Shown here piece by piece: positions 14,784 through 60,952 of a stretch of 64,000 nt of DNA. Every line of letters starts with the position of its first letter. Position 1 is the first letter of the stretch. This DNA is from Chiloscyllium plagiosum. Its lineage: Eukaryota. Location of the stretch: positions 78,418,935 to 78,482,934 of the forward strand of contig NC_057718.1 in NCBI RefSeq assembly GCF_004010195.1. The letters are read 5' to 3'. Below the pieces are notes generated by a model. The model was not told the origin of the DNA, did no database searches, and saw nothing but the letters and a program-made list of their open reading frames with translations. The position numbers and the translations under genes are program-made.

Positions 14784-16016
14784 TATGCTTGGTGCTTTGT
14801 AAGCAGGGTTCTCCCTCCAAGGGGTTCAAGGGTGTCTGAAAGGGATATGGCTAAGTGTCTTATTAAATGGTGCACCTAGAACATTAAGCGAAGTCATTCA
14901 CCTATTAAAAGGAAAAAGTGCTTTCTAGCCTTAAGAGGGAAAGGATTGATATCACTTTGTTGTAGGGAACCCATCTTGATAATGGGGAACACCTGAAATT
15001 ACAATAGGGGGGTTATGACCAGGTATTCTTTACATCCTTTCCTACTAAAAGTAGGGGGGTGGCAGTAGTTATCCAGAAAAATCTTCCATTCACATTATTA
15101 GAGCAGGTGAAAGATGAGCAGGGCCGGTTTGTGATACTTAAAGCCCTGCTGCATGGGGAGGAATATGGCATTTTAAACGTCTACTGTCCTCCGGCGCATC
15201 CCCTCAATTTTTTGATTAATGCTTTCTCTAAGTTGAGTGCTTTTGGAACACGGCACATTATTATGGGGGGGGGGATTTTAATTGTCTCTTGGATCCGACA
15301 GTGGACCTTGTGGGCCTCCAACTATTTCTTCGCAGGCCAAGCAGGTGGTTGACCTACGCGAGGAGTTGGGGCTGGTGGATATTTGGAGATGTCTTCACCC
15401 TACCAGCAGGGACTTCACCTTTATTTTTCAAACCTACGTAAATGTCACACAAGGATTGACCTCTTTCTGGCTCCCTTGGCCCTTCTGGATTCGATTGAGT
15501 TGTAAAATTGGGAATATAGCTATCTCTGATCATGCAGCAGTATACTTGAGGTTAAGGCCAAGAGTAAAGGGCTAGGCTTGTGGCATTGGCATTTGGACCC
15601 TTTTCTCCTTAAGAATTACAAATTTGTGCAATACTTTTTGAAGGAGTTTCAGGAATTCTTGACTATTAACTCAGGCACAGCTAGAAGTCCATCCGTGCTA
15701 TGGGAGACTGCTAAGGCCTTTGCTAGGTGATTAGCTATTTCCTATTTGGCTAGCCGGAAACGACAGGAGGAACAGCAGCATCTACTTGAGACGCGATTGA
15801 AAGCCGCAGAGGCAGCACATTTTGCGCAGCCTTCGGTGACTAAGCTACAGTGGATCGCGGCCCTTCGGCTGCCTTGAATTCAATACTGACACTAAACGCA
15901 AAGAAAGAACTTGCTTTTGCTAGGCAGAGGCTGTTCGAATATGGCGATAGGCCAGGAAAGTATTTACCATACGTGACTAGGAAAAAGCGTGCTCCCCAAT
16001 CCATTACTGCAATCAG

Positions 16017-16198
16017 GCAGCATCCAAGGAGCTTCGAAATCGACGTTTCGGGCAAGAGCCCTTCATCAGGAATAACGATGAAGGGCTTTTGCCCGAAACG
16101 TCGATTTCGAAGCTCCTTGGATGCTGCCTGAACTGCTGTGATCTTCCAGCACCACGAATCCAGAATCTGGTTTCCAGCATCTGCAGTCATTGTTTTTA
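16017..16198. mobile_element. Family-A short palindromic PLE-like element nested in L1 ORF2, with hammerhead-like core
   Basis: Perfect 16-bp TSD CCATTACTGCAATCAG (16001-16016 and 16199-16214). 54-bp inverted arms at 16014-16067 and 16077-16130. Minus strand 16042-16069 reads CTGATGAAGGGCTCTTGCCCGAAACGTC. Confidence 0.85.
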
Positions 16199-17244
16199 CC
16201 ATTACTGCAATCAGACAGGGTCCTTACATATGATGCTAAAAAGATTAATGAGGCTTTTCGGAGCTTTTACTCTGAATTGTATCGGTCTGAAGGTTGCGAA
16301 GACAGGAGTGCTAAAATGGAGAATTTTTTTAAGAACCTGGACCTCCCAGGGGTAACCTTGGAACAGGCCTGTCTTCTTAATGCCCCCTTGATAGTTCAGG
16401 AAATACAGGAGGCAGCTAAGCAACTTCAGAGTGGGAAAGCGCTTGGCCCTGATGGTCTTCCAGGTGAGTTTTACAAGGAGTTTATAGGGATTCTGTCAGG
16501 GCCGATGTTGGAGATGTACAATCACTCCTATATGCATGAACACCTGCCACCATCTTCGAGAGAAGCTAATATTTCCTTAATTCTTAAGAAGGGGAAGGTT
16601 CCTGAGGATTGTGCCTCATACAGGCCCATCTCTGTAGTAAATTCAGACTTCAAGATTCTATCCAAGATCCTGGCGCTGAGATTGGAAAGGGTGTTGCCCC
16701 ATATTATTAGAGAGGACCAGACAGGTTTTATAAGGGGCCGTAGGTCCTCTAATAATATTAAAAGGTTGCTGAATGTGGTCCAAGTTTGTCAGCAGCGATC
16801 GATTCAGGGGTTGGTGATTTCCTTAGATGCAGCGAAAGCATTTGACCAGGTGGAATTGACGTATCTTTTTTGTGTCTTAGAACTGTTTGGGTTGGGTGGA
16901 GTCTTTGCTAGGTGGGTGGAGGTTTTATATTGCCACCAACTGGGTGAAGTCTGGGAATTTTATGATTGGTAGGGGTAGTCGGCAAGGCTGCCCCTCTCAC
17001 TGTTGTTGTTTACATTGGTGATAGAGCCACTGGCAGAGGCTATTTGTCAGAATGTCCACATAAACATTCCGGAAGTGGGATCAAGAGCACACAAGGTTAC
17101 ATTGTACGCAGATAATATCCTTCTGTTTTTATCGAACCTGATCACCTCCGTACCCAGTTTGATACAATGTATCAATTCATTTGGGTCTATTTCAGGATAT
17201 AAGATTAACTGCAAAATCAGAGGCTATGCCTTTGGGGAACCTTA

Positions 17245-17420
17245 AGGATGTGCCAGAAGTTGAAGGTGGCTCTAAGTTCCCTTTTAAGTGGTCACGGGCA
17301 GAGTTCCGATACCTAGGCATTTTTATTACCCCAGGATGTGCCAGAAGTTGAAGGTGGCTCTAAGTTCCCTTTTAAATGGTCACGGGCAGAGTTCCGATAC
17401 CTAGGCATTTTTATTACCCC
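17245..17420 (+). repeat. 88-bp tandem duplication in the L1 RT
   Basis: AGGATGTGCCAGAAGTTG...TTTATTACCCC occurs twice with one substitution and shifts the frame. Confidence 0.92.
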
Positions 17421-19270
17421 CAAGTTTGATCTGTTATTTCGGACTAACTTTGCTCATTGCTCGACAATATTAGGCGAGATCTCCAGAGATGGAAGGCTCT
17501 TCCAATTTCATGGCTGGGCCAAATATATCTCCTTAAGATGAATGTTCTTCCTCGTTTGCTTTATCCCATGTGTATGCTCCCTATAATGTTTCCCAGGTCA
17601 ACGCTGCGGTAGCTTATCGGGTGGTTTGGTTCCTTTGTTCCATCGTGGGTGGTCCCTCATCAAACTTACTAAATTGCAGTTGCCTTGAGGAGGGGGAGGA
17701 GTTGATTTCCCAGACATCAGAAGGTATCAATTGAGTTCCCTGCTGTCCTTTGTCTGTGATTGGGTAGGTAACGATCCAGACTCAATATGGCTGGATATTG
17801 AGGCCTCCCAAGCAAAGTGCCCTCTTATTAACCTGTTGTTCATGGATAAGATGAGGACAGTTACGGACCACTGCCGGAACCCCATTGACATTAGTACAGT
17901 CAAGGCATGGAGGGCGATGCGTCATAGTGAGGGTTGTTTATCCAAGACTTCACCACTTACACCTATAGTTAGCATGCCAGGGTTCTGACCAGGGATGATG
18001 GACTCAGGGTTCAAACTATGGACAGGGAGAGGAGTTTCTAGTTTGGGAGACTTGTTTGAAGGGGAAGTTATGATGTCTTTTGAGCAACGGGCCGCAAATA
18101 CAGGTTGCCCTGCAGAGACCTTTACCGTTTTTTTCAGGTTAGGGATTTCATCCAGAAGAAGACTATGCTTCTCACTACGCCCTATAAGCCCGATACAGAG
18201 AGGTGGTTGCTACGTTCCACAAACACCTTTCGGTTAGTGCCCTTTATCGCCTGCTGGGTGGCAGGGCCTGGCAGGATATTAACCGGTTATGAGAGGTCTG
18301 GGAGCAAGAGCTGGGAATGGAGATATCGTCTGAAACCTGGGAGAATACTCCAAAGATCTCAATCTGTAACAGGACATGTACTATGCAGTTAAAAGTTCTG
18401 CACAGGGCTCATCTGGCACCAGACCGTCTGGCGAAGTTTAAAACCGGGGAATCTTCAGTATGCCCCAAATGTAAAATAAGTGTAGGTACTCTTACCCATT
18501 GCTTCTGGACATGCCACAGGCTCCGTGTTTATTGGAGCGCTGTGGCGGGAGAGATAGGGAGGGTATTGAGGACTGAAGTCAAAGTATACCCAATATCTCT
18601 CCTCTTTGGTCTACTGAATTTACCATCTTTAGACAGGCATGGGAAGAAACTATTTAATATTCTTGCATACTGTGCAAGGATACTTCTGTTTAAATCCACA
18701 AAAATCTTTGTTTTTTTATTTGTCCGTGCCTTAGAAGGTTAAGAAATAAGCTGCTCTTTTTTGAAAGCGTATTGATCATGGAAAATAGATTGAACATGGA
18801 TTTCGTTAGTTCTGTCGCCTTGTCCGTAATGTGCTTCATTGGGCCTGATATTACAAGCAGTGTGTTGAAGAGGATGGTGACATAATGTACCTTCATCTTG
18901 GTGCATCTGACATTTGCTTCAATAACTAATTTTCAATTCTTCCTGCAACAACTTTGTGGTTTAAAAATCCTGATGGGTATCATGTTTTTATTTAAGTGTT
19001 GATGGTGTACTTCCCCTTGGCAAATATCTCAATCATAAAAGCTCTTAATTATACCTAAATCAAATGTTTCTTTTCTTTTCATCTCATCTCTCTTCTCCCC
19101 CAGCGCCCCCCCGAAATGTTCTTCAACTTCAATCCTCATGTTAGCATTTTCCCTATGTTTTTGTAACATGATTAACAACAGTATTTCCAACACAGGTGAC
19201 CACCTATAATATGGAGGCCTTTATTGATCTGGTGATGTAGCTTTTCATTTCTATTCGCTTTTGTTTCCAG

Positions 19271-21509: not shown

Positions 21510-22783
21510 TTAGCTTGTGGTGAAGAGTTGCTTTTCAGACTGGAGGCCTGTGACCATTAGTGTGCTGCAAGGATCAGTACTGGGTCCACTGTTTTTGATC
21601 ACTTGTATAAATAGTTTGGAAGTGAACATACGAGGTATGTTAGTAAATATGCAGATGATGCCAAAATTGGTGGTGTAGTGGAAAGCGAAGAAGGTTACTT
21701 CAGACTACAACAGGACCTCGTTCATATAAGCTGACGGGCTAAAGAGTGGCAAATGGAGTTTAATTTAGATAACTGTGAGGTATTGCATTTTGGTGGAGGC
21801 AAATCAGGGCAGGACTTGTACACTTTGGGATCTGGAGTGTGTTGCTGAACAAAGACCTTGGAGTGCAGGTTCATAGTTCTTTGAAAGTGGACAGGGTAGT
21901 GAAGATGGTGTTTGGTATGCTTGCCTTTATTGGTCAGTGCTGGATTAGAGTGGCGCTGGAAAAGCACAGCGGGTCAGGCAGCATCCAAGGTGCAGGAAAA
22001 TCCATGTTTCGGGCAAAAGCTCTTCATCAGGAATAGAGGGCTGATCTATTCCTGATGAAGGGCTTTTGCCCGAAACATCGATTTTCCTACTCCTTGGATG
22101 CTGCCTGACCTGCTGTGCTTTTCCAGCACCACTCTCTAATCCAGACTCTGGTTTCCAGCATCTGCAGTCCTAGTTTTTACCCTTTTTGAGTCAGTGCATT
22201 GAGTATAGGAATTGGGAGGCCCTGTTGTGGCTGTACTACATTTGGTATACTCTGTTCAATTCTGTTCTTCCTGCTAATAGGATAGGTGTTGTGAAACTTG
22301 AAAGGGTTTAGAAAAGATTTACAAGGATGTTGCCAGCGTTGGAGGGTTTGAGCTATAGGGAGAGGCTGAATAGGCTGTGGCTATTTTTCCTGGAGCGTCA
22401 GAAGCTGAGGGGCAACCTTAAAGGCTTAAAATCAAGATGAACCTGGATAGGTCAACTAGTCAAGGTCACTTTTCCTCAGGCTAGGCAAGTCTAAAATTAT
22501 AGGACATGGGTCCCTTCAAAATGTTTCCCCCCTCAGCTTAAACCTAAGGGGCAACCTTTTCGCACACAGGAAGTGCATTATGGAATGAGCTGCCAGAGGA
22601 AGTGGTGGAGGCTGGTATAATTACAGCATTTAAACGGTGTCCGAATGGGTATGTGAATAGGAAGGGTTTTGAGGAATATGGGCCAAATGCTGGCAGATGC
22701 GATTATATTAATTTAGGATATCTGGTCAGCCTGGACGAGTTGAACCAAAGGATTTGTTTGTGTTGTAAAACCGTATGACTCTA
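21510..22783 (+). mobile_element. CR1 LINE 3' fragment interrupted by a family-A element
   Basis: Decayed QGSVLGPLF, KYADDAKIG and KDLGVQVH motifs. 3' UTR ends TATGACTCT. Confidence 0.88.
21941..22180. mobile_element. Family-A palindromic element nested in CR1
   Basis: Inverted arms of about 90 bp around about 22035-22045. CTGATGAAGGGCTTTTGCCCGAAACATC at 22052. Flanked by GTCAGTGC on both sides (imperfect TSD up to about 17 bp). The host CR1 resumes after it. Confidence 0.85.
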
Positions 22784-24095: not shown

Positions 24096-25001
24096 TTTGT
24101 TTTGTTAAATGTGCTGTACAAGTGCAAATTATAATAATGAAGTAACATCCCTGTAATTGTTGCATTGAAGATTCTGCATGGATATATTAGTTGTATTTTT
24201 CCACCTTTTAACTTGCAGCCTATCTTTGAAAAATTCTGTACCTCTTTCTAGGGAAATTATTATGCAAAAAGTGACTGGTTGTTGCAGAAGAGGAGGTGGA
24301 GTTGCATACAAATACACAAAGGTAAAACTTTCTAAACTTTGTGTGGGCTTTTTCTATGTGGGAAGAAATGATAGTTAAGGACAAGTACAGAAGACAGCTG
24401 TAGCTATTATTTAAAGGTATGCACTTGAAATATATTAATTAGTGAATTTAAGTGCAAAACTATTAGGCTAACCTGATTGGACAGGAGGGTAGGATGGCGT
24501 CGCTACAATAAATCAGTATGAAAGTGGGAGGTTAGTTTATCACCAGAGTAATTGAAAGAATTTGATGTATCTCATGTATCTCAAAACATTTCACAGGTAA
24601 TAGGTTTGATTTGAAGTCTGATACTGTTATGCAAACCAGAGAAGCAACCAGTTTGTGCAGGGAGAAAATTACCAAAATATTTTGGATTATTGTATGGGAT
24701 AAGTGATAAGATTGCTCTTCAAAAAATGCCGAAGGATTTGCATTACTTCCTAAACAAATAGGGTGCTAAGTATAGAATCTGACCTCTTCAAATCAAAGCA
24801 CATTGTAGCACACCTTCAATGTTGCATTTTCGTGGTGCCTTAAATAATGTGCTCCAGTTTCTGAAGTGAAGCTTTGATTCATGATAAACTGATTTGTCTG
24901 AGTGCATTATCACAACCAAGGCTGACACGGCTGACTAAGTTTTGTTTTGTTAAATGTGCTGTACAAGTGCAAATTATAATAATGAAGTGACATCCCTGTA
25001 A
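24096..25001 (+). repeat. 61-bp dispersed direct repeat (24096-24156 and 24941-25001)
   Basis: TTTGTTTTGTTAAATGTGCTGTACAAGTGCAAATTATAATAATGAAGT(A/G)ACATCCCTGTAA, one mismatch. Confidence 0.92.
24252..24321 (+). CDS. IGF2R: IGF2R penultimate exon (juxtamembrane cytoplasmic tail)
   Basis: 70-nt exon between ctttctAG and GTAAAA. Reads EIIMQKVTGCCRRGGGVAYKYTK, versus human ETVISKLTTCCRRSSNVSYKYSK. Confidence 0.95.
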
Positions 25002-25443
25002 CGTCAATTCTCCTGCTCCTTTGCTGCCTGACCTGCTGCGCTTTTCCATCAACACATTTTTCAAAGCTGATATATAGGGCCTATATGCCATATATTCTAC
25101 ATCATAGTATCATTATCTTAGTTTTTATTACTGTAAGGCAATGTCAAAATTTTGAACTTTCTAAATTGATCTAGCTTCATTAGGGTTTAGAAGAATCTCA
25201 TTTAATTGTAAAAGATTGAGGTGATTTGATTGGAATAATGTTGAAAAATTGTCTACTGGTCAATGCATCCAAAACATTAAGGAGCTGGCTGATCATTTAG
25301 GACTAAGGAGAGATTTTTGTTTGCTGGCATGTTTGAGGAATTTCCATAGTTGATTACATTTAAGGCTAGGATAGAGATTTTGGTCTCTAGGGAAAATAAG
25401 GGTTAAAGGAGTAGGCAGGAAAGTGAAGTTTAATCTGAAGATC

Positions 25444-25737
25444 GTGGTTAGCACTGCTGCCTCGCAGCACCAGGGTCCCAGGTTTGGTTCCAGCCTCTGG
25501 CGACTGTCTGTGTGGAGTTTGCCCATTCTCCCCTTGTCTGCGTGGGTTTCCTCCGGGTGTTCCGGTTTCCTTCCACAGTCCAAAGGATGTGCAGGTCAGG
25601 TGAATTGGCCATGCTAAATTGCCCGTAGTGTTAGGTGCATCAGTTAGACGGAATAGATCTGGATGGGTTACTCTTCGGAGGGTCAGTGTGGACTTGTTGG
25701 GCTGAAGGGCCTGTTTCCACACAGGGAATCTAATCTA
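25444..25737 (+). mobile_element. HE1-like V-SINE, slightly 5'-truncated
   Basis: Collinear with 60666-60952 and ends AATCTAATCT. Confidence 0.88.
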
Positions 25738-28061: not shown

Positions 28062-28880
28062 AGATGAAAATATTCCATTCTTGTAATGCTCCACGTAATA
28101 CTTTGTCATTTCATCAGTGCATTCGCATAAAATGCTGCGTCTTTTCACACACTAAATTTTAATGTTAAATTTGATTTAAAATTAGTTGCAGCATTTGCTT
28201 TCTTTTGAAAGTATGTTCATTTTCTCATTAAGTTTTTGATATTTATAAGATTAAAGAAAGAGAAACAGCACTTTATAAGCAACTTGGGTATAATCTTCAA
28301 ATGATCTGTTATTTGCCAGCCTTGGCAATGTGATCCATATTTTGGAAAGTGCAGCAAAAAAGAGTCATGAATGCATGTGTGTACATCCTGCTGCAAAATG
28401 CTTTTTTTCCCTTCATTCTCCATCCATGCAATTGCACATTCAGTTGAAACCCTCCTATTTTAATGCAGCATAAATCCGTGTCACCTCTTGTTGTGCCATT
28501 CTTTGTTTTCAGAATTGTTTATGAAACTTAAAGTATGATCCTCTGGTTTCTTTCCAGTTAGCAATTATCAGTTGCCTATTTTGTCCTAATGCATACTCAT
28601 GTCCTAGAACATTGACTTTTTTTTGTTGTTTCCACTTTCTGTAATAGTCTCCCATTTTAGAATGATCAGTATTGCCAAAAATTGTTTCTTTTAACTTGGT
28701 CTGACTTGAATAGTTACTTCTAATTGTCCCTAATTACCCTTGAGTGAAGATAGTGATGAAGGTGCTGCAACCTTGAACGGTTGCAATCTGTGTTTTAGGT
28801 GGACCTCCCCTGGGCCATTAGGTGTGGAATTTCAGGATTTTGACCCAGTGACACTGATGGAAGGGTGATATAGTTCCAAG

Positions 28881-29007
28881 GCAAAAGTGAGGACTGCAGA
28901 TGCTGGAGATCAGAGTCCAGATTTGAGTGCTGCTGGAAAAGCACAGCAGGGGCAGCATCTGCGGAGCAGTAAAATCCACTTATCGGACATAAGCCCTTCA
29001 TCAGGAA
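28881..29007 (-). mobile_element. Family-A single-arm copy
   Basis: Same GACTGCAGATGCTGG...GCTGGAAAAGCACAGCAGG...CCCTTCATCAGG sequence. TTCCAAG is duplicated at 28874 and 29008. Confidence 0.75.
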
Positions 29008-30681
29008 TTCCAAGTCAGGATGGTGAGTGGTTTGGAGGGAACTTATGTTGGTGTTCCCATATATCTACTACTCTTATCCTTCCAGGTGGAAGTGGGTGTA
29101 GCTTTGGAAGGTATGATCTAACACTTTTTTTGCTAAATTTCTACAGTGCACATTATAGATACATACTGTTGCTCCTGAACGTCAGTGGTAGAGGAAGTGG
29201 ATATTTGTGGATGTAGTGCCAGTCAAGTAGGCTGCTTTATTCTGGATGGTGTCAAGCTGCTTAAGTGTTTGAAGTTACACTCAGCCAGGCTAGTGGGGGA
29301 ATATTACAGCACACTCCTGACTTGTGTAATATATAGATTGAGGACTAGCTTTGGGAAGTCAGGAGGTGAGTTACTTGTGGCAATATTGCCAAGTCCCGTT
29401 GTAGCCATAATTTATTTGAGTCCACTTGAATTTCTGGTCAGTGGTTTCTCACCACCTCCCCACCCCCATACAAAGATATTGTAATAAAATGATAGAGTAG
29501 ACAAGAAAGAAATTACAAAATCATGACAATGGACAATAGGTGCAGGAATAGGCCATTCAGCTCTTCGAGCCAGCACCACCATTCATTATGACTATGGCTG
29601 ATCATCCTCAATCAGTATCCTGCCTTATCCCCATAACCCTTGATTCCACATGGACATAAGCCTGGTAATTCACATTAGTGGGTAAATAGTTATAAATTAA
29701 TTATAACTGAAATACATTAAAGCAAAATCAGTCAATTTATGTATTAAAATAGGAAATGACTGAGGGACAACACAGCTGATGCGTCAGTTTCATGTAACTG
29801 TGCTATCTTGATTTGCCTTGTTTCTGTAAGGATGCTGCCATGCCAGTGATATCTTCCAGACCTGGAAATCCAAATTCTATGGAGGATCCAGTAAAGCTGT
29901 CATTAAAATTAATTACTTGGTAAATGAGAGTTAATAAACATTTACAACTGAAATATGGATGGTGGTATCTGACATAGATGTTTGTGACATAAATATGCAT
30001 GTTTATTTACGCCACATTGAGCAAATGCATAAACTGTTGCCATGTTAAACTCAGCATTGATTTTTACTTTAGATGATTGGGAACCTTTGAAGCAAGGTTG
30101 AGAGCTATAATATTGAAATTACTACTTCATTTTTAGACCAATCCAGGATTAACCTTTGGGAAATCATCTACCCTTGAGGAAATTAGCTGGTGTTTATAAC
30201 AATTCTGTAAAGGATGTCCTGTTTCTCAAAGCTTTGTATCCAATTCTGAGCTCATTTTGCCATTGCAGCCCATCACCTTTTCAGAATAATTAAAGTGAAA
30301 ATTTGTTCTTTTTTTTTTTGTTTCGTGGGTTCTTAAATACCACAATTGTGCAATTTTAACCTTTTTTGGGTTGAAAAAATACAATTGGCCAAGGCAGCCT
30401 TGAGGATGAATTCAGAGTACAGAGGGGATGGTGTCATGGAACTACTAAGGAACAACTGTTTGAAATCTCCGAATGTGTAATGAGATGAATGAATCTTGAG
30501 TAAAGAATTTTTTTACCACAAGGGTGATCATAACATGATAGAGTTTTACATTGTATTTGAAGGTGAGAAACTTGGGTCTGAAACTAATACCTTAAAGGCA
30601 AATGGAAAAGCTAGGATATAGTTAACTGCAGTGAATTGGAAAAGTGGGTCAAAGGGAAAGATGGTACATAAACAGCAGCAA

Positions 30682-31585: not shown

Positions 31586-34500
31586 GTTATACATTGAAAT
31601 GTGGGGTGTGTGTGGTGGAGGAGGGTGGCAGTTTGTGTTTGTGAGTATATGAGCGTGTACAGGGGTCGAAGTCTGTGAGAAGGTGTGTGTGTGCACTTAA
31701 ACTTGTTGAGCCCCAGTGTATCTCCACTTTGTCCAGGCCCTGGACTGAGTAGGTGCTGGGAGTATCTAGAACTGGAGGACACAGTTTCAACATACTGTAT
31801 AATTTCAGTTATATCACATTATAAACTTTTGCTATAAATTCTCCACAACCACCTGATGAAGGAGCAGCTCTCAAAAAGCTAGTGCTTCCAATTAAACCTC
31901 TTTGACTATAACCTAGTGTTGTGTGATTTTAACTGAAATCTTTGACTATTGTACATAATGTAGCCTTCACTAAGCACTACTGATCTCCTAAGAGAATCAC
32001 ATTTCCATATCAGTTCAAAGTTATTGGAAACTTGAAATTAATTTTGAGCCTAGATTTTCCATCATTATTGGTAGTATGAATCTAATTTAGGCAGTTCTTT
32101 TTTTAAAAAAAACAACAGGTCACATCTTGATTGTGTAATTTATTGATTTTTTTTCCTTCATGATCTGGTTGAATCTTTTCATTTTCATATTGTATTGATG
32201 ATCTGTCATGCCATCTGTATGTAGAGTCCTCTTTCAGGATTGGGAGGTGGTGTATTTGGAGGCTGAGGGGTACTGGGGGCTAATACAATTGTGTTACATG
32301 GAGAACTCACTGAAATGTCAGTCTTAGATTTCCTCGAGCTAACTAGTTTCAGTGCTAAACAATTATTATCTCCAACACATACAAATCGTACCATGGTCCC
32401 TTGACATTCAATGGCATTACCATTCTGGGAGTTACCAGTTTAGCATGTGGCCACTTGCATTGCAGATGGCACATGAAGAGCTGAAGTCATCCAATCCAGG
32501 ACATCACCCATGTACTGAACTTCTGCCCTGAGAAATCCATTCCTGGTGGCAACATAACCCTGCACACTGCCTCAGCTGAAATTGTTGAATAGATTGTTAA
32601 TTTAGCATCAAATGTTAGTCATTCCCAGCCATGTGATTTTTGAAAAAAAATGTTTATTATCACTAATAGGAAAGCTTTTAGAAACCATCGTTTGGGGAAA
32701 ATTACCTAACATTTAGATTAACTTTCCCATATTAAGTCCATGTTTATGTTTGACTAATCTGAGTTTTTGATCAGGGCAGATGATGTTATATGTAAGAATT
32801 TTCAAAAGGCCTTTGATTTTAGAGGGATTATTACACTTCTGGGCAAGATTTACACCTATTGGAATTAAATAAAATGCTTTAAATTATATAATGCCTTTCC
32901 TGAACATCTTGTAATATTACAGTGCAGCAAGACCTGGAAAATATGACAGCAATTTTATCCTGCATGTACAATGCTTCAGTCGGCCTCTGATCATAAATAA
33001 GCAGACCTATGCCAATCCATCAGATTATGCTGATATGATTATGGCCTTAGCTCAACATCCCTGTTTGCCTCCTTATTCTTTAATTTCCTTATTGATAAAA
33101 ATCTGTCCAGCTCAGTCTTGAATATATTTAATGACACAGTCTGCACTAGATTCATGAGAATTCTAAGGACTGTGGAGGAAAATGAGTTCTAAGGAATTCT
33201 GTGGAGGAAAATGAATTCCAATGTTCTGCCTCACTGGACTAGAAATCAATCCTTGCTATTCCCAAAGTCGTCATAAAACTTTAAGATTTTAAGTGCATTT
33301 AATTCCCCAATTTACTTGTCTCTTCAACCTCGGTTGACAGAAACTATTGATCAGGTTTCTGTTCTTAACATAAATTATTTAAAAGCTGAAAGAACTGTGC
33401 ATGCTGTAAATCAAACAAAAACGTAAATTGCTGGACAAGCTCAGCAGACTGGCAGCCTGAGTTCTGAGGAAGGCACTCTCAACCCAAAGCATTTGTCTCC
33501 ACAGATGCTGCCAGACCTGCTGAGCTTTTCCAACAATTTGATTTTGCTTATGAATTACTTATTAGAATTAAATTGATCCTAGCAACATGTGCACAATTGT
33601 GAACCATCAGCAAGTAATACTAGTTAAAATGCTAGATTTTTGGAGGCATAGGGTAGCTGGTTCATACTTATTTAAAATTCAGAACTTTTATAAAAGTCTA
33701 CGCTTACAACAATGATTGAAGAAAGAAAAAACGTTTTCTTCAGGTTTAAAGTGGTTTTGCTGCTGAGAAAAGGTGCAGTTCCTGAACTGCTGGTGATCTG
33801 ATTGCTTATTCCCATCTTATTCACAGATTTAAGATGTTCTGTTATGAGAGAACCAGACAGTTGATGGAAGGCAAAAGATGCCTTTAGCGTTGAGAACTGG
33901 TCATTGGTCCACGGACTGATCAGCTACTTGTGGGTTGATTCTCCATTTGTACACAGACCTGACTCCAAACCTACACTTTCTACTGCTGCTTGAACTAGCA
34001 GCTGTCTAAACAGTGCTTGCAATGAGCGTACGATTACTTGATTTTTAAAACTGCAGTAATCGTTCAACCATTCTTGGTTTTAAACCAATTCTTTTCCCAT
34101 TCAGTGCATACTCAAAAAAACAAAATCATTATTTACGCTGTCCACAGGGTTTGCTGAGATGATCATTTTGGGACCTTCTGCATCTTTTGATATACCAGCT
34201 CCAGGTATTCCCACTTGTTTGTAGGAGGCACACTGTGATTGGTTCATACTTGCATTTCTGACTTGCTGAAAGCTTTCGCTCTTTACCAGTGACTGATGAG
34301 GGGAAACAAACTGGCTTTCTTCAAGCTTGGTATTTAAAACAAAAATTCAGGAGGACAGTTCCTTCCTTGCTAGAGATTTGTTGACTTCTAACCAAGCATT
34401 CATACACTTCAGCTGCCTGGGAGCCAGTCACATACTGGTAGGCAGAGAGCCTTTGCCATTGGTTTGTGGACTGGTGACCAGTTATCAATCAGTTACTAGT

Positions 34501-34945: not shown

Positions 34946-35947
34946 AGTCATAGAGATGTGTACAGCATGGAAACAAACCCTTCGGTCCAACCCGTCCATG
35001 CTGACCAGATATCGCAACCCAATCTAGTCCCACCTGCCAGCACCCGGCCCATATCCTTCAACCCTTCCGATTCATATACCCATCCAAATGCCTCTTAAAT
35101 GTTGCAATTGTACCAGCCTCCTCCACATCCTCTGGCAGCTCATTCCATCCACATACCACCCTCTGTGTGGAAAAAGTTGCCCTTTAGGTCTCTCTCATAT
35201 CTTTCCCCTCTCACCCTAAACCTATGCCCTCTAGTTCTGGACTCTCCAACCCCAGAGAAAAGACTTTGTCTATTTATCCTATCCATGCCCCTCATAATTT
35301 TGTAAACCTCTATAAGGTCACCCTTCAGCCTCCAAAGCTCCGATAGGAAGGAGACCAGAATTGCACGCAATATTCCAACACTGGCCTAACCAATGTCCTG
35401 TACTCAATACTCTGACCAATAAAGGAAATCATACCAAACGCCTTCTTCACTATCCTATCTACCTGCGACTCCATTCTGTTTGTTCAGCAACACTCCGTAG
35501 GACCTTACCATTAAGTGTATAAGTCCTGCTAACATTTGCTTTCCCAAAATGCAGCACCTCACATTTATCTGAATTAAACTCCATCTGCCACTTCTCAGCC
35601 CATTGGCCCATCTGGTCAAGATCCTGTTGTAATCTGAGGTAACCCTCTTCGCTGTCCACTACACCTCCAATTTTGGTGTCATCTGCAAACTTACTAACTG
35701 TACCGCTTATGCTCGCATCCAAATCATTTATGTAAATGACGAAAAGTAGAGGGCCCAGCACCGATCCTTGTGGCACTCCACTAATCACAGGCCTCCAGTC
35801 TGAAAAACAACCGTCCACCACCACCCTCTGTCTTCTACCTTTTGAGCCAGTTCCTATCCAAATGGGTAGTTCCTGTATTCCATGAGATCTAAGCGTGCTA
35901 ATCAGTCTCCCATGGGGAACCTTGTTGAATGCCTTACTGAAATCCAT
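34946..35947 (-). mobile_element. CR1 LINE RT fragment inserted into an older CR1-type tail (about 34880-36420)
   Basis: ORF 35459-35947 reads DFSKAFNKVPH...SGVPQGSVLGPLLFVIYINDL...SKFADDTKIGG...WQMEFNSDKCEVLHFG. Confidence 0.93.
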
Positions 35948-38900: not shown

Positions 38901-41900
38901 ATGTTAGTTTAGGATCACTTAAGTGGAACCTTATTGAATACCTGTTGCAACTTTTATATAAATCCTACACACGATAAATTAGGAAACTGGTCCATACACA
39001 TTCCTCTGCCACTACTTAATAGCTCAAAAAAATTAATTAGGTTCGTTAAAGTTCTGGAGAAGAATCATACTAGATTTAACATGTTAATTCTGTTTTTCTC
39101 CCCAGAGATGCTGCCAGACCTGTGCAGCTCCCCTAGCATTCTCTGTGGTTTGTTTCAGATTCCCAGCATCTGCAGTATATTGCTTCCCTTGGAACTTACC
39201 TGTCAAATCTATGATTTGTTTCCCTAATCAACTTACTTTCTAAGTGCTCATTCAATATGTCTTTATAAATCTAATAACTTGTTGACCCAGATGTCAGTTT
39301 TGCCCAAAATGTCTCCCATTCTGCCCTAATTTTAAAGCTTAAAGATTGCCATAACCACAAACCGATGTTTTTGCTAGCTTTTTTTAAGTAGGAATCAGAC
39401 CTCAAAGATTAGTTAGGTCAGACCACCATTCCTCAAAGAATGAGGGTATGAGGATCCTGGGGCATTCATGCTCCATGCCGAGAGCTCCACAGCAGTCATT
39501 ACAGCTCACAACATAGACAACCTTGGACTGTATTGGCTGGCACATCTGAAGAAAGCAATTTCTTCATTGCCTTCTGAAATGCTATGATCACTTTATATTG
39601 GAAAGCCACTATTGACCTCGTCTCAAAGGACTTTTTAAAGATTGTAGCCAAATTTAGAATTCATTTCCCAGGGAATTGATAATTCCTAGGAATTGCAGAA
39701 TGTCATTGATACTCTGTGGCTGTGGACATTTATTATTGCTCTTGTTTTAGCCTAAAGGAGAGCTCCTATAATTTATGCACTTCTCATTCAATGTGAGACT
39801 TGTTTTCTGTAACAGCAAAAGAAATAGTGACCATGTTCTTGTTATAGCATCCATAAGTATGACATCAAAAGACAAATTACTCCTTTTTCCCTTCTAAGGG
39901 AGATGTTGCATGTTGAAATATATTTGGTGCTAGTGATATATCAAAGTGATTAAAGCAAAATCACCCAAATGGTGTCAAGAAGGTGGTTAACAACATTGAC
40001 TCATAGTCTGATGGTATTTGCCAAAATCTGTTAGCATCTAATTTTGTGAAAAATATGCTATTAGTGACTCTTGCCAGATTATCATCACTGAGGACAATAG
40101 CCTTCTTACTGGATTACTTTGTTTGATGATATAATATTTCAATATAGCTTGAGTTCTCCATTTGGCTTGGGAACACATTACATAGTTGGCATTGTGACAA
40201 AAGTGATATCACTCCACTGTGCAGCATACTGTCAATCTCAGCTTTAGCTTTCTCTAGCAATGGTAATTGTAGTCTTCCTGGAGACATTGGCTTGGCTTCC
40301 AGAAGTAATGTAATGTGATATTGTTCCTTGAGCTATCCGAGACCTTTTGGAATCCTTGCCAAAATTCCATCCCATTATCCTCCTGTAATACAGCAACCCT
40401 CTTAGCATAAAACATAATTGCATACATGCTACTTTAAAAAGATGTTGCTTGGTTCTTTAAGGTACAGTCAGCTCTTCCATCACACAATGGTAACACGATA
40501 GCACCCGCACGATAGCACGATAGAAAAATCATGCTTTAGAAACAACACTTCGTGTTGGTGACTTAAAAGTTCATGCTTTACAAATAGCCTCCCCAATTCG
40601 TCAATCGCGTTACAGAGAATTTGTGGTGAGGAAATACATGCTATTAGTCAGAGGGAAATGGGCCTGGGTGCGTTACTCTTCGGAGAGTCAGTGTGGACTG
40701 GTTGGGCTGAAGGGCATATTTCCATACTGTAGGGAATCTGGGGAAAAAAGCAGTGACTTGCACAGCATCTTGTTGATTTCTCATCCCCTTGTGGCTAAGC
40801 ATAGTAGTGAACTGATCTTATACTTCCTCATTAGACAAGGGCAGAAAATACCATTGCAGATTTCCAGTCCATCCTATGAGTCTAACCTCAATAAAACTGA
40901 AGCAATTTAATTGTAATCCAAGGGATCTTGAGTATGATCTAGTGATTATGGCCGTTAATTGGCTGGGGCTGCCAAGCCCAATGCTGACACATCAATACCC
41001 AATCTGTTGTGTAAATCTGAAGAACTGTTGATCAAAATTCCTGTTCACATCTCCAATACCAGCAAAATCAATCCACAACTACTAATGCCTTAATTGCAAT
41101 AAAGAGCTTCAAGGCTCTTCACCAGACTACTATCAATTACCAAAATGACTCCAAGTCTCACAAGGAGACAATGGGGCAGACAATTAAGATATTGGTGAGA
41201 GATATGTCTCAAAGGGTGTTTTAAAGAAGGAGGGAGAGAGAGAGAGAATTCCTGAGTTCAGGGCCTAGGCAGTTGATAGCTTGGCTAACAAGAAATTAAA
41301 ATTGTAGATGTGCAAGAGGCTAGTATTTATAAGACACATCTAGGAAGTTAAACTAGAAGTTTGTGGAATGGAGAAAAGGATGAAGCCATGCAGGAAATTA
41401 AAAACCAAGGGATGAAGATGTTAAAATTAAGACACTGCTCAACAGGAGATGGCATGTCAAATGGCACAGTGATAATGGGGGAATGGAGCTTTGTATAAGA
41501 TAGAACATGAGCAACAGTGTTTTGGATGAGTTTGATTTACAGGGTGTGGAAGATGGGAGCCTGGCCAGGCATGCCTTAGAATTGTGAAGTTTAGATTTAC
41601 AGCGACATGACTGAATGTTTCAGCAGCAGATAAGCAGAGACAGGAACAGTCCGATGATTCAGACATGGAGATAGACAATTTTAATGATTCCATGGAAGTG
41701 TACTTGAAAGCTCAACTCAGATGAAATATGATAGCAATGTTGTGAACTGTCATCAATCTTAAATTGAGAGGTATGGAAATCGGTGGCTAGGAAATCGAGT
41801 TTATAGTGGTAACCAAAAACAACAGTTTTGAATTCTCAATATTTTATAGAAGGATAACTCTGCTCATACCGTGCTGAACATCAGATGAGCAGTTCAGACA

Positions 41901-44185: not shown

Positions 44186-45741
44186 TGATCACACCACGTC
44201 ATCTTGTTTCTTAGTGATGAGGTTATGTAGGAACACAGGAACAGCAGTAAGTCATTCAATCTCAAGCCTATTGCACCATTTAATGAGTTCAAGGCTGATC
44301 TGTGGCCTAACTCCCTATGTCTGTCGTTTGTCCAAATCCCGTTATAACTTTGTTAACAAAGAATTATCTATCTCAAATTAACTAACAACTGATATAGCAT
44401 CAACTACCCTTTGTATGTAAAAGTGCCTCCAAACATCTCTTCTGAAAGGTCTCGCCCTAATTTGAGACAATGTTCCCTAGTTAAAGAATCTCCAGTCAAT
44501 GGAAATGGTTTATCTTTCTTGTTAATATCTTGAAGACTTTGGTCAGATCACCTCTTAACCTTCTAAATTCTGGAGAAAACAGGCCTAAATTCTATAATCA
44601 CTCCTCATAACCCTTAAATTCCAGGTGTCACTCTTATAAACCTACAATGTACTCACTCCAGGGTCAATATATCTTTCCTAAAGTATAGTGGCCAGATCTG
44701 CTCATTGTACTCCAAGTGAGGTCTAACCAGGATTTTGTACGACTTTTCCAATTCTCATAGGGGGGTATTAGAGATTAGAGCTACAACTGGAGTTGTGGCC
44801 TTTGTCAACAATGTTGGTTTCTTCCAGGTGCAAGGGCAATCGACTTTGAGAGAGCCACTTTGGCAGACGTCTTCAATGGAAAAGGATTCTATTAGTTCAA
44901 TGTACAGTCACCTGTGATCATCAGCACCACATCTTAGAGTTCTGTACCAAATACCCTCGAAGCTATCTTTTTGCCTATATCCTTAATAACTTTTGTTCCT
45001 CCTTCCTGTATATAATGGTCTGACATTGAATGATGAGAAAATGTTGGGCTACATGAAGTAAGATGTAATGAGACTAAGAATGGGTAAGCTGTGTGGCTTG
45101 TTTCTTAATTAACAACAGTTGTACTAATGCACTAATATAATGTACAATGAGGTGTCAGCCATGCCACCTTTTGCACTGTGAAGCATTTATTTCTGGTTGA
45201 CCTCTGATTATTTTCAAGGTTAAGGGCAGCTTCAGACTACCAATGCTTGAATTGGGGCACTGTGGGTTTTAAAGATAGTACCAGCTCAAAGACTGTGATG
45301 AATACTTCCACCTACAATGAGTGGGAGATAAGAATGAGCAGGTGCCATGGAGGCATGATGCGTAGGTATGAGGATAGCATAAGGAAATTCACCAGGCCTC
45401 ATGGAGAGAAAGTCTTCGTGAAACTTGTCAAAACTGACCCTTGGCTGATTTTTGATAAAATTATATCTATAGAGAAGCAGAATAATAATTTACATTCACA
45501 ATCACATACTATTACCCTTTTATTTTGCATCAGCTAAAAAGCTTTTGTTTTGTTGGTGCTGCTACATTTTATCTTATTTCTGTATGCAGTTTCTCAGGAA
45601 ACATGAAGGTGTTTGTAAAACAGTCATAAATATGATAGGTGAGTGACAATCTATCCAAGTTATTTGGGTTCTATGATAAAATCAGATTACTTTGCTTTAT
45701 TACCTCCAATGGCACTGCAAACCCAATGCAATGTAGTGGAA

Positions 45742-45861
45742 GGTGAAAAGTGTGGTACTGGGAAAGCACAGCAGGTCAGGCAACATCCAAAGAGCAGGAC
45801 AGTCGACATTTGGGCATAAGCCCATCATCCAGCATCTGCAGTCCTCACTTTCTCTCAATCA
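45742..45861. mobile_element. Family-A internally deleted copy
   Basis: Contains GAAAGCACAGCAGGTCAGGCAACATCC...CCAGCATCTGCAGTCC. Flanked by CAATGT(A/G)GTGGAA at 45729-45741 and 45862-45874. Confidence 0.7.
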
Positions 45862-47627: not shown

Positions 47628-49222
47628 GTCATAGAGTCATAGAGATGTACAGCATGAAAACAGACCCTTTGGTCCAACCCGTCCATGCCAACGAGATACC
47701 CCAACCCAATCTAGTCCCACCTGCCAGCACCTGGCCCATATCCCTCCCAACCTTTCCTATTCATATACCCATCCAAATGCCTCTTAAATGTTGCAATTGT
47801 ACCAGCCTCCACCACATCCTCTGGCAGCTCATTCCATACACATACCACTCTCTGCGTGGAAAAGTTGCCCCTGAGGTCTCTTTTATATCTTTTCCCCCCT
47901 CATTCTAAACCTATGCCCTCTAGTTCTGGACTCCCCAACCCCAGGGAAAAGACTTTGTCTATTTACCCTATCCATGCCCCTCATAATTTTGTAAACCTCT
48001 ATAAGGTCACCTCTCAGCCTCCGATGCTCCAAGGANNNNNNNNNNNNNNNNNNNNNNNNNNNNNNNNNNNNNNNNNNNNNNNNNNNNNNNNNNNNNNNNN
48101 NNNNNNNNNNNNNNNNNNNNNNNNNNNNNNNNNNNNNNNNNNNNNNNNNNNNNNNNNNNNNNNNNNNNNNNNNNNNNNNNNNNNNNNNNNNNNNNNNNNN
48201 NNNNNNNNNNNNNNNNNNNNNNNNNNNNNNNNNNNNNNNNNNNNNNNNNNNNNNNNNNNNNNNNNNNNNNNNNNNNNNNNNNNNNNNNNNNNNNNNNNNN
48301 NNNNNNNNNNNNNNNNNNNNNNNNNNNNNNNNNNNNNNNNNNNNNNNNNNNNNNNNNNNNNNNNNNNNNNNNNNNNNNNNNNNNNNNNNNNNNNNNNNNN
48401 NNNNNNNNNNNNNNNNNNNNNNNNNNNNNNNNNNNNNNNNNNNNNNNNNNNNNNNNNNNNNNNNNNNNNNNNNNNNNNNNNNNNNNNNNNNNNNNNNNNN
48501 NNNNNNNNNNNNNNNNNNNNNNNNNNNNNNNNNNNNNNNNNNNNNNNNNNNNNNNNNNNNNNNNNNNNNNNNNNNNNNNNNNNNNNNNNNNNNNNNNNNN
48601 NNNNNNNNNNNNNNNNNNNNNNNNNNNNNNNNNNNNNNNNNNNNNNNNNNNNNNNNNNNNNNNNNNNNNNNNNNNNNNNNNNNNNNNNNNNNNNNNNNNN
48701 NNNNNNNNNNNNNNNNNNNNNNNNNNNNNNNNNNNNNNNNNNNNNNNNNNNNNNNNNNNNNNNNNNNNNNNNNNNNNNNNNNNNNNNNNNNNNNNNNNNN
48801 NNNNNNNNNNNNNNNNNNNNNNNNNNNNNNNNNNNNNNNNNNNNNNNNCCAACAACTTGCCCACCACCGGGGTCAGGCTCACCGGTCTATAGTTCCCTGG
48901 CTTGTCTTTACTGCCCTTCTTAAACAGTTGTTCCATATTTGCCAGCCTCCAGTCTTCCAGCACCTCACCTGTGACTATCGATGATACAAATATCTCAGCA
49001 AGAGGCCCAGCAATCACTTCTCTAGCTTCCCATAGAGTTCTCGGGTACACCTGATCAGGTCCTGGGGATTTATCCACTTTTAACCGTTTCAAGACATCCA
49101 GCACTTCCTCCTCTGTAATCTGGACATTTTGCAAGATGTCACCATCTATTTCCCGACAGTCTATATCTTCCATATCCTTTTCCACAGTAAATACTGATGC
49201 AAAATATTCATTTAGTATCTCA
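47628..49222 (-). mobile_element. Young CR1 LINE spanning the assembly gap, in SLC22 intron 1
   Basis: Right of the gap reads KSPGPDQVYPRTL...LFKKGSKDKPGNYRPVSLT. Left of the gap is a CR1 3' UTR with a (TATGACTC) tail in the same orientation. Confidence 0.9.
48036..48848. other. Assembly gap (813 N)
   Basis: Run of N, flanked on both sides by the same CR1 copy. Confidence 1.
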
Positions 49223-49497
49223 ATTGTCTGCAGTCAGCAGAGATGGCACTTAATTAACATCACCTAATAAATTCGGACAAACCTGATATATCGCCATCCT
49301 AGTCAGTGTATAGTGTGTTTGACTCCTTGCATAGAATGTGGAAGTTTCATCAGATTACTCTCAGAATCAATTAATCTAATTAACCTTGACTTTGATTTCT
49401 GGTTGATTTGACCAAATGTACAAATTCTGCCTAGTGTCCTGATGCATCTCAGGGTCACCTCCAGAGATATAGTAGTATTTAAAAGCAATGCTGTGGA

Positions 49498-50065
49498 TGA
49501 ATATAGACATAACTCTAAATATTGAAGACTATTCTTTTCATCCTTGCATCAAAACCTGCAACCTTCTTGGTTCTGATATACCTGGCATCCCAACATTTGA
49601 TGAATCTTCCCTGCAAAGAAGAATGATAGTGAGCAGTCGTACCAGATTTGAAATATTAACGCTATTTGTCTCCACGGATGCTGCAAGGTTTGCTGAGTTT
49701 CTCCAGTATTCTCTGTGTTGTTGCCGTGTCAGAAATCTGGACTCAGGTATGCCAACAATTTAGAATTCCTTGAATAGAAGATTCTGTACCTGTCTGGGGA
49801 CTGAATGAATCAATAGTGTATTGTTGTTGTACCCTATTGTGGGATCTGTTGGCTGACCCTGACTACAAAATAATTCAGTTTCAACTGAGTCAATTCAGAG
49901 GAAAAAGAAACTTAAGCATTATACACAACCAAAAACACATTTTGATAAGTTTCTCACCCTGACTGATCATCTTTGACTTTTTTTAAAGACTGCACAACTG
50001 AATATAGACATAACTCTAAATATTGAAGACTATTCTTTTCATCCTTGCATCAAAACCTGCAACCT
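49498..50065 (+). repeat. 67-bp dispersed direct repeat (49498-49564 and 49999-50065)
   Basis: TGAATATAGACATAACTCTAAATATTGAAGACTATTCTTTTCATCCTTGCATCAAAACCTGCAACCT, identical, 501 bp apart. Confidence 0.92.
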
Positions 50066-59955: not shown

Positions 59956-60647
59956 CGTGATGATTCAATCTTCCTCTTCAAGGAGTTTTGATGATTTGGG
60001 TCCTGGAGGTTCATGTCTTGAATCAGTTTTCCATTAAAAGTTATCATTGCCATTACTTTCATGTCAGCATTGTGAGAAGGTGCCATCCCACTCCACCAAT
60101 AAGTTCACCTATCAAGGAAATGATGACAGAGCAATATATCCGGTTTGTCTTCCAAAACTATGTGCAACACTTTTGAGATTAATGCTCTAAGAGAAAGTTT
60201 TGGAAAGTTGGAGTGGGAGGGGAAATGTTGGAAGTAGGATTTGGATGGAAACTGTAAATAGTTCATGAGGTCAATAGTTTGAGAGAAGAGTAAGCTTGAA
60301 GAGGAAGGAAATGTGTAGTAAAGAGTTAATTATACATTTAACTGTAGCAACTGAGCATGCAAATAAGTAGCAATGTCATGATGCTTCAGATGATAGAGAA
60401 CTAGAACAGAAGTCTATAGGGTTTCATAGAAGGCAATTCCTGCCATCTTATGTTTAGAATTAATAATGTTCACTTAAATGGGTGTAAACTACCTTCTCTC
60501 AATAACCCATATGTGATCATATTACAAAATCAGGCAAGTAAACCACTCTTCTGCGGGGAAGCATTTGAGAAATAGTCAATTAGAGTTAAAATTACACCTG
60601 AGAAAGACAAGAAAGCCAAATGTATGAATACATAACAGTAGATTTTT

Positions 60648-60952
60648 GGGCGGCACGGTGGCACAGTGGTTAGCACTGCTGCCTCACAGCGCCAGAGACC
60701 CGGGTTCAATTCCCGCCTCAGGCGACTGACTGTGTGGAGTTTGCACATTCTGCCCGTGTCGGCGTGGGTTTCCTCCGGGTGCTCCGGTTTCCTCCCACAG
60801 TCCAAAGGTGTGCATGTCAGGTGAATTGGCCACGCTAAATTGCCCGTAGTGTTAGGTAAGGAGTAAATGTATGGGTGGGTTTCGCTTCGGCGGGTCGGTG
60901 TGGACTTGTTGGGCCGAAGGGCCTGTTTCCACACTGTAATCTAATCTAATCT
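60648..60952 (+). mobile_element. Full-length tRNA-derived V-SINE (HE1-like)
   Basis: A box TGGCACAGTGG, B box GGTTCAATTCC, V-domain GTGGAGTTTGCACATTCT...GGTTTCCTCCGGGTGCTCCGGTTTCCTCCCACA. CR1-like tail GGGCCGAAGGGCCTGTTTCCACACTG followed by (TAATC)n. Confidence 0.9.

Follow-up and report, generated by a model that had tools for sequence, protein, structure and literature searches.

A hairpin-forming, hammerhead-bearing insert in the genome of Chiloscyllium plagiosum as a probable end-fragment of a Penelope-like element

The insert at 16 kb and its relatives

The window analysed here is a 64,000-nucleotide stretch of the genome of the shark Chiloscyllium plagiosum (NCBI RefSeq assembly GCF_004010195.1, contig NC_057718.1, positions 78,418,935 to 78,482,934, forward strand). 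Near 16 kb it contains a short non-coding insert with a minimal hammerhead ribozyme motif, one copy of an abundant repeat that we call family A, and an original prediction had read this insert as a mobile palindrome derived from a Penelope-like element (PLE). The 182-bp insert (16017-16198) does lie between two exact copies of a 16-bp target-site duplication (TSD), CCATTACTGCAATCAG, and does form a hairpin, while the arm length first given, 54 bp, needs correction: the inverted arms (16013-16067 and 16077-16131) are 55 nt each, 98% complementary and separated by a 9-nt gap, with their sole mismatch in a small internal loop (TCTT versus TTTT). On its minus strand the left arm reads CTGATGAAGGGCTCTTGCCCGAAACGTC, that is, CTGATGA-A-GGGC-TCTT-GCCC-GAAA-CGTC, exactly as first reported, and this is the only motif in the window to pass our minimal-hammerhead descriptor, with a predicted cut after the final C. 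The right arm is without the first two bases (CT) of the CTGATGA box. The last 4 nt of the left TSD (TCAG) are identical to the end of the inverted arm, a microhomology at the junction. RNA folding of either strand of the insert returns a long hairpin (-119.1 and -121.5 kcal/mol).

To describe the family we used a profile hidden Markov model (HMM) of 137 positions, built from 21 natural arms, in which CTGATGA occupies positions 12-18, the bulged A position 19, helix II positions 20-23 with 28-31, GAAA positions 32-35 and C-G-T-C positions 36-39. Its nhmmer matches to the 16-kb copy cover 16006-16077(-) for the left arm (HMM positions 4-76, E=6.5e-19) and 16076-16200(+) for the right arm (HMM positions 13-137, E=5.3e-45). 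The host sequence is a long interspersed element (LINE), a non-long-terminal-repeat (non-LTR) retrotransposon, with an RVT_1 match of 60.6 bits in 16142-16969, just downstream of the insert, and a weak zf-RVT match in 18293-18739; its reading frame is continuous once the 182-bp insert and one TSD copy are removed.

The three further copies first placed at 21941, 28881 and 45742 are related to the insert by both BLAST and profile (Table 1), and their TSDs proved largely as described. At 22 kb, where the hammerhead motifs have decayed in both arms, the TSD GTCAGTGC (at 21933 and 22190) is 8 bp when exact and 17 bp if 3 mismatches are allowed; at 28.9 kb it is the 7-bp TTCCAAG (at 28874 and 29008); at 45.7 kb, where 13 bp had been given, we find 16 bp with 2 mismatches (at 45730 and 45863). 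The prediction also counted about eight older relics. We recover four more arms at nhmmer E<0.01, three of which belong to a sister PLE family, so that the count holds only in part. All that these sister-family relics have in common with family A is the block GATGCTGCC(A/T)GACCTGCTG..TTTCCAGCA, which varies as little as the ribozyme core and may serve for recognition by a protein.

Extended to the 264 kb centred on the window, the profile search yields 51 arms (10 inside the window), or about one per 5 kb. About seven insertions in the 264 kb include PLE body sequence, none of them inside the window. A search of the 3.56-Gb genome with the insert itself yielded 1728 first-look candidates; 40 of these were scored, and 80 matches were returned. 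The 26 distinct copies follow a common plan, in which one arm extends to ...CCAGCATCTGCAGTCATTGTTTTTACC, the other is inverted and shorter, the centre is variable and a TSD flanks the whole.

Table 1. Features of the 16-kb insert and its relatives in the window
Feature	Position	Strand	Basis
Left TSD, CCATTACTGCAATCAG	16001..16016	.	exact 16-bp repeat
Inverted (left) arm, unit positions ~4-64, outer end cut short, no tail	16013..16077	-	inverted repeat and nhmmer
Minimal hammerhead motif: CUGAUGA, bulged A, GGGC-UCUU-GCCC, GAAA, C-G, U, C	16042..16069	-	descriptor scan
Direct (right) arm, unit positions 13-137, reaching tail end	16076..16198	+	nhmmer
PLE 'tail', ~35 extra nt (...CTGGTTTCCAGCATCTGCAGTCATTGTTTTTA), right arm only	16164..16198	+	comparison with six long PLE copies
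Right TSD, CCATTACTGCAATCAG	16199..16214	.	exact 16-bp repeat
Host LINE (non-LTR retrotransposon) open frame, interrupted by the 16-kb insert	15008..18739	+	RVT_1, weak zf-RVT
Second palindromic stub, arms 21939-22037(-) and 22045-22181(+, with tail)	21939..22181	.	BLAST, nhmmer
Solo stub, unit positions 6-134, decayed motif	28883..29010	-	nhmmer
Stub: near-complete inverted arm 45751-45832(-) fused directly to ~25-nt plus-strand tail fragment	45751..45855	.	nhmmer
Old family-A-like relic	24982..25056	+	nhmmer E=3.2e-08
Sister-PLE-family relics	227-308, 33460-33535, 39102-39177	-, +, +	nhmmer

The link to a Penelope-like element and the ends of the insertions

The ~137-nt unit is the end region of a PLE. 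In six long copies an open frame (...NIIYCIRCSRCGLLYIGETGRLLAERFREHL...GINVDFNSFLISPSPTSS, then a stop codon) is followed by a spacer of ~215 nt and then by the unit, which supports the PLE origin first proposed. This frame matches Pfam GIY-YIG (PF01541) at 24.8 bits against a cut-off of 22.6 and has 58 relatives at E<=0.001, the nearest named ones being shark proteins. Several relatives of 800-900 aa have precomputed RVT_1 and GIY-YIG-region domains; the one scored for RVT_1 reached 28.1 bits, below the cut-off of 29.6. At locus L040 a family-A-type unit lies ~260 nt past a GIY-YIG remnant, NIIYCIRCSRCGLLYTGETG, and this 50-aa piece as a query gave 70,942 first-look candidates, of which 150 were scored, all at E<=7.3e-26. 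Locus L031 has, in order, an inverted arm, a frameshifted and decayed reverse transcriptase (RT)/GIY-YIG remnant and a direct unit; its frameshifted open-frame pieces gave zero family matches against Pfam. Apparent open frames of 500-1500 aa at GIY-YIG matches were set aside, being runs of N read as open and not intact genes.

Two readings of the hammerhead box as part of a coding frame were also rejected. The TGATGA of the box was considered as the PLE stop codon at L031, and the translations of L080, L082 and L085 stop ~215 nt upstream. The ATG within CUGAUGA was considered as a start codon, as in the Anolis element, and discarded because the frame closes after 17 codons. At four loci (L006, L025, L035 and L050) the unit continues 60-135 nt beyond the tail into ...GCAAGGATGCCTGCCTTGAAGAAG... 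or ...TCGTTGATTTTAACCCTACTGCGAATCCTCTTGCAAGGATGCC..., and we infer that ...GCAAGGATGCCTGCCTTGAAGAAG..., ~35 nt past the tail, is the likely start of the open frame, which would make the unit a leader sequence. At L035 and L050 the 5' boundary of a second unit directly follows the past-tail extension. The past-tail extensions suggest additional, rarer RT start sites together with template jumps.

Across all the sequence analysed, arms start at HMM positions 3-11, 1-9 nt before CUGAUGA, in 151 of 199 cases, compared with 6 of 199 around the cut site (31-41). The boundary is sharp at this 5' side, and what stands in front of it is either unrelated flank or an inverted arm; its 21-nt word has 23 genomic matches against 0 for a reversed control. 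The 3' ends cluster at unit positions ~97-110, 124-127 and 132-137. The six long PLE copies stop ~35 nt short of the tail end, at ...ATCCAGAA(T), and most non-coding insertions, which we call stubs, are ~35 nt longer, while the inverted arm stops at ...ATCCAGAAT in 19 of the 26 distinct copies. Adjacent opposite-strand pairs (n=51) have their hammerhead ends inward in 50 cases and their tails inward in one; among the 50 inward pairs, 28 have one short end and one tail end, and 2 have two tail ends. The palindrome centre is distinct in all 50 of these inverted pairs, most of which have at least one arm reaching the 5' boundary of the unit. Of 36 young copies, 22 have exact TSDs of 10-17 bp (mode 14-15), with one case doubtful, and allowing up to 2 mismatches adds 7. 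TSD length thus varies as the prediction expected of target-primed insertion, and not as in a DNA transposon of the miniature inverted-repeat (MITE) type.

Stubs and PLE-attached units share their variants. Of the 159 units that cover at least positions 16 to 88, 26 border directly on the spacer or body of a PLE and 133 are stubs. Hypervariable positions 44-55 define haplotypes, of which at least 8 are common to stubs and PLE-attached units. The window copy's own haplotype, GATTTCGAAGCTCCTTGG, is one base away from that of a PLE-attached unit in L088.

Tandem arrays with a period of 45-46 nt occur at L054:298-542 (5.5 copies) and L048:1475-1597 (2.7 copies) and contain the hammerhead segment only. 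Each repeat reaches from the 5' boundary of the unit to ...GATTTTGC, a span bounded by the first and last bases of helix I, and the arrays are a natural multimer of the minimal hammerhead. Repeated template jumping at a GC(C) microhomology would explain them.

The hammerhead motif

Scanned over the 264 kb, a descriptor of the minimal hammerhead matches 15 times, against 0 times in every one of 50 first-order Markov simulations, more often than chance would give. All 15 have a 1-nt bulge, though the descriptor permitted 0 or 1. In family A the CUGANGA box, the helix II hairpin and the GAAA box stand in type I order, with a G10.1-C11.1 pair (GGGC/GCCC), no helix III and palindromic positions 15.2/16.2 (A-C-G-U), the last of which would let two copies pair. 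Metazoan PLEs carry minimal hammerheads in their pseudo-long terminal repeats (pLTRs), with CUGANGA and GAAA boxes, a helix II of 6-8 bp and a helix I of 4-5 bp, or of 2 bp in D. virilis (PMC4209133). Family A is like these published motifs in both boxes, the single unpaired base between 9 and 10.1, the G10.1-C11.1 pair, the lack of helix III and the palindromic 15.2/16.2 positions, as well as in its location in the terminal repeat region and its occurrence genome-wide, mostly as solo motifs with some opposite-strand pairs (PMC4209133). These sequence features support assignment of the family A motif to the published PLE type, as the original prediction had it.

Variation within the motif is limited. 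Common variants are restricted to N7, one loop-2 base and CpGs, and no constrained non-CpG motif site has a common variant (0/18), against 18/65 sites elsewhere (Fisher p=0.009). Such conservation is not unique to the ribozyme, since the unit has further blocks, GATGCTGCCTGA for one, that are equally invariant. Covariation of helix II within family A is uninformative because the stem never varies. Between families it does: by helix II the descriptor matches fall into at least 4 sequence families (GGGC/GCCC, GGGTC/GACCC, GGAGC/GCTCT and GTTACCT/AGGTAAT), and the sister families retain the core with differing helices II, of 5 and 7 bp in this neighbourhood.

Intact motifs of the three other families lie near the window at L099:4982(+), L092:9649(+), L095:583(-), L102:8668(-) and L097:3804(+). 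In inspected context, the GGGTC family alone of these three has an inverted layout like that of family A. The L097 motif (GGGTC) and the L095 motif (GGAGC) are each in a palindromic arrangement. Next after the GGAGC-family motif comes ...CCTGTTGGACTATAACCTGGTGTTGTGTGATTTTTAAC..., a further repeat that is very common here.

The 16-kb copy itself is predicted to be catalytically inactive because folding would lock its motif in the hairpin or in UGAUG-CGUCG pairing; the 55-bp hairpin would hide the hammerhead core, and in the minimum free energy (MFE) fold of a single arm UGAUG pairs with CGUCG.

Elsewhere in the window, 25296-25734(-) and 60533-60940(-) are copies of a different abundant repeat with open frames ...LDCGRKPEHPEETHA..., and 35462-35947(-) holds a second RT fragment (RVT_1, 75.2 bits) from a LINE-like element unrelated to family A. 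A run of 813 N bases (48036-48848) falls within the most AT-rich stretch of the window (48001-50000, GC 0.24).

A proposed origin and its alternatives

The insert at 16017-16198 is very probably a short end-fragment of a PLE with a PLE-type minimal hammerhead motif. It likely arose when target-primed reverse transcription copied only the first ~135 nt of the PLE RNA, and the inverted arm is likely a product of the same event. The PLE RT would start internally, near the front of the RNA and just upstream of the coding region, and would copy back to the RNA 5' end, so that only the leader would be retained as a non-coding stub; such a leader-only stub would follow from an RT start upstream of the coding region on an RNA beginning at the sharp boundary. 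A second complementary DNA (cDNA) would be primed at the other cut strand, and joining of the two cDNAs would give inverted arms with their hammerhead ends inward. For the 16-kb copy, the junction suggests that the second arm was primed at the 4-nt TCAG microhomology, from unit position ~64. Stubs formed in this way would be inert. Snap-back copying of the nascent cDNA is disfavoured as a source of the inverted arm, since a tail and inverted flank would then be expected in the second arm, and second arms mostly stop at the short end.

This proposal has close counterparts in known systems. An Anolis PLE studied in vitro shows internal RT initiation at two adjacent start sites, a tail, and cleavage and extension of both strands (PMC11167929). 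In PMC8557442, insertions of endonuclease-containing (EN+) PLEs are described as having an inverted 5'-truncated copy and an optional 30-40-bp tail at one end, in agreement with the earlier remark that PLEs often insert with inverted partial copies. Here too the unit is contiguous with a GIY-YIG-ending frame, and an inverted truncated copy occurs with a one-end tail and a variable TSD. Family A is like complex EN+ PLE insertions in its 5'-side inverted arm, ~35-nt one-arm tail, alternative ends, variable TSDs and extreme 5' truncation (PMC11167929, PMC8557442), and its alternative end sites match the two adjacent RT start sites of the Anolis PLE (PMC11167929). It differs from such insertions in that its dominant product is a non-coding stub of ~100-137 nt with one sharp 5' boundary. 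The RT starts differ as well, apparently lying upstream of the likely start codon in family A and 111-118 nt into the open frame in Anolis (PMC11167929).

Several observations weigh against this account. Compared by described features, the family A motif departs from the published PLE type (PMC4209133) in a helix II of 4 bp rather than the 6-8 bp of metazoan PLE motifs, and may also differ in helix I, which by its sequence has 2 contiguous pairs (C-G, U-A) and more only across U-rich mismatches, a weakness of stem I that had been foreseen. Of the model searches first suggested, the descriptor scan found the motif and the Rfam hammerhead models did not: these gave no match in the window at gathering score or in 15900-16320 at E<=10, and none at E<=1 on the PLE-attached unit of L085, the sister-family motif of L095 or the 45-nt array of L054, the only Rfam matches on these inserts being weak ones to microRNA hairpins. 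RNA data over L085:4447-5300 (one poly-A single-cell run and two contig sets) revealed no site at which molecules start or end, and the unit is covered on both strands with heterogeneous loose ends at its boundary; this result is uninformative on ends because the library type is poorly suited, as a poly-A single-cell library cannot show the 5' end of a short non-polyadenylated RNA. The inverted arm of the 16-kb copy stops at unit position ~64, which is no regular end site, and regular second-strand priming does not fit it directly. The long copies were read from their flanks, their RT bodies being N in the fetched loci, and the RT link depends on the decayed L031 remnant and on relatives in other organisms. 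Finally, a stub is the nearest neighbour of 25 of the 26 PLE-attached units, which is partly expected with 133 stubs against 26 attached units, and resemblance to the window copy partly determined which stubs were sampled.

It is possible, if on balance doubtful, that the motif is a sequence relic without a ribozyme role, kept for another reason, for instance because it forms a structure in the PLE leader that binds protein or serves RT strand transfer. The missing Rfam matches, the weak helix I and the UGAUG-CGUCG pairing of the single-arm fold would fit this idea, as would the finding that arms do not begin at the predicted cut site and that blocks such as GATGCTGCCTGA are just as invariant. 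In vitro, moreover, the Anolis PLE could insert without its ribozyme, and reads ending at the cut site were absent; yet the Anolis motif did cleave with its protein present, and core mutations abolished cleavage (PMC11167929). The pattern of variation also speaks against a relic, for it falls exactly where a hammerhead tolerates it, namely at N7, in loop 2 and in swaps of helix II between families. A separate and rather unlikely reading would make the hammerhead fold an architectural signal for the PLE RT and not mainly a cutter: the first base of helix I falls on the stub boundary, the 45-nt arrays repeat exactly the stretch that helix I delimits, as though the enzyme had hopped across the closed helix, and no copies start at the cut site. 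If this were true, the stubs, numbering in the hundreds of thousands, would document in vivo how the RT starts internally and transfers strands at a folded ribozyme.

Whether the stubs spread by themselves is a separate matter. The original prediction had proposed a mobile palindrome, a non-autonomous family in its own right, and this part did not survive the distinct centres of all 50 pairs, the arms that stop at end sites, the one-arm tails and the interleaving of stubs with attached units. A related scenario, in which family A would be an independent non-autonomous lineage like a short interspersed element (SINE) or a retrozyme, with master stubs transcribed from themselves and mobilised in trans by PLE protein, strikes us as quite improbable. 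Very high copy number (the 51 arms in 264 kb and 1728 genome candidates), a sharp 5' boundary and units without coding sequence are all as such a lineage would have them, and a 2026 preprint (Li, Clavereau & Pollet) argues for an origin of animal retrozymes from PLE pLTRs. Non-LTR retrozymes of animals (Cervera & de la Pena 2020; the 2026 preprint) are likewise hammerhead-bearing, non-coding and related to PLE pLTRs; unlike them, with their tandem repeats that give rise to circular RNAs, family A consists of dispersed single or inverted units with rare 45-nt arrays. No stub-only lineage is apparent among the 159 units compared, where stub haplotypes recur in PLE-attached units and a separate clade is not seen. 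Palindrome centres, again, are never shared in the 50 pairs. Since stubs end where RT starts, they would be without whatever lies downstream of the start site. A tRNA-like head is absent as well: ARAGORN found no tRNA-like gene over the window, and the unit starts 1-9 nt before the hammerhead box. The tandem arrays are rare and their 45-nt period is unlike that of retrozymes, whose repeats have a period of 170-400 nt. A fold-back DNA transposon, that is, a MITE moved by a transposase, would account for a short 55-bp hairpin between direct repeats, and its chance is negligible in view of the unequal arms with a tail on one side only, the predominance of single arms, TSDs of 10-17 bp and of no fixed length, and the contiguity of the unit with a retroelement coding body. 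The stubs are thus most likely one-off by-products of individual PLE insertions and not a SINE or MITE lineage, and the 16-kb insert is probably an ordinary by-product of this kind and not a new self-spreading element.

Overall, family A is a known PLE insertion architecture with a known minimal hammerhead, here in the form of an abundant shark family; a full-text search of the literature returned no paper combining Penelope, shark and ribozyme. For annotation, TSD-flanked mini-inserts that form hairpins and bear a hammerhead are to be recorded as PLE insertion stubs, and not as MITEs, SINEs or microRNA-like hairpins. Should the density of about one arm per 5 kb seen in the 264 kb hold in other regions too, such stubs would account for a considerable part of the genome. 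The family A end data agree with the in vitro picture from Anolis, and the stubs offer a large natural data set on three poorly understood steps of PLE integration: where RT starts, how both cut strands are primed and how the cDNAs are joined.

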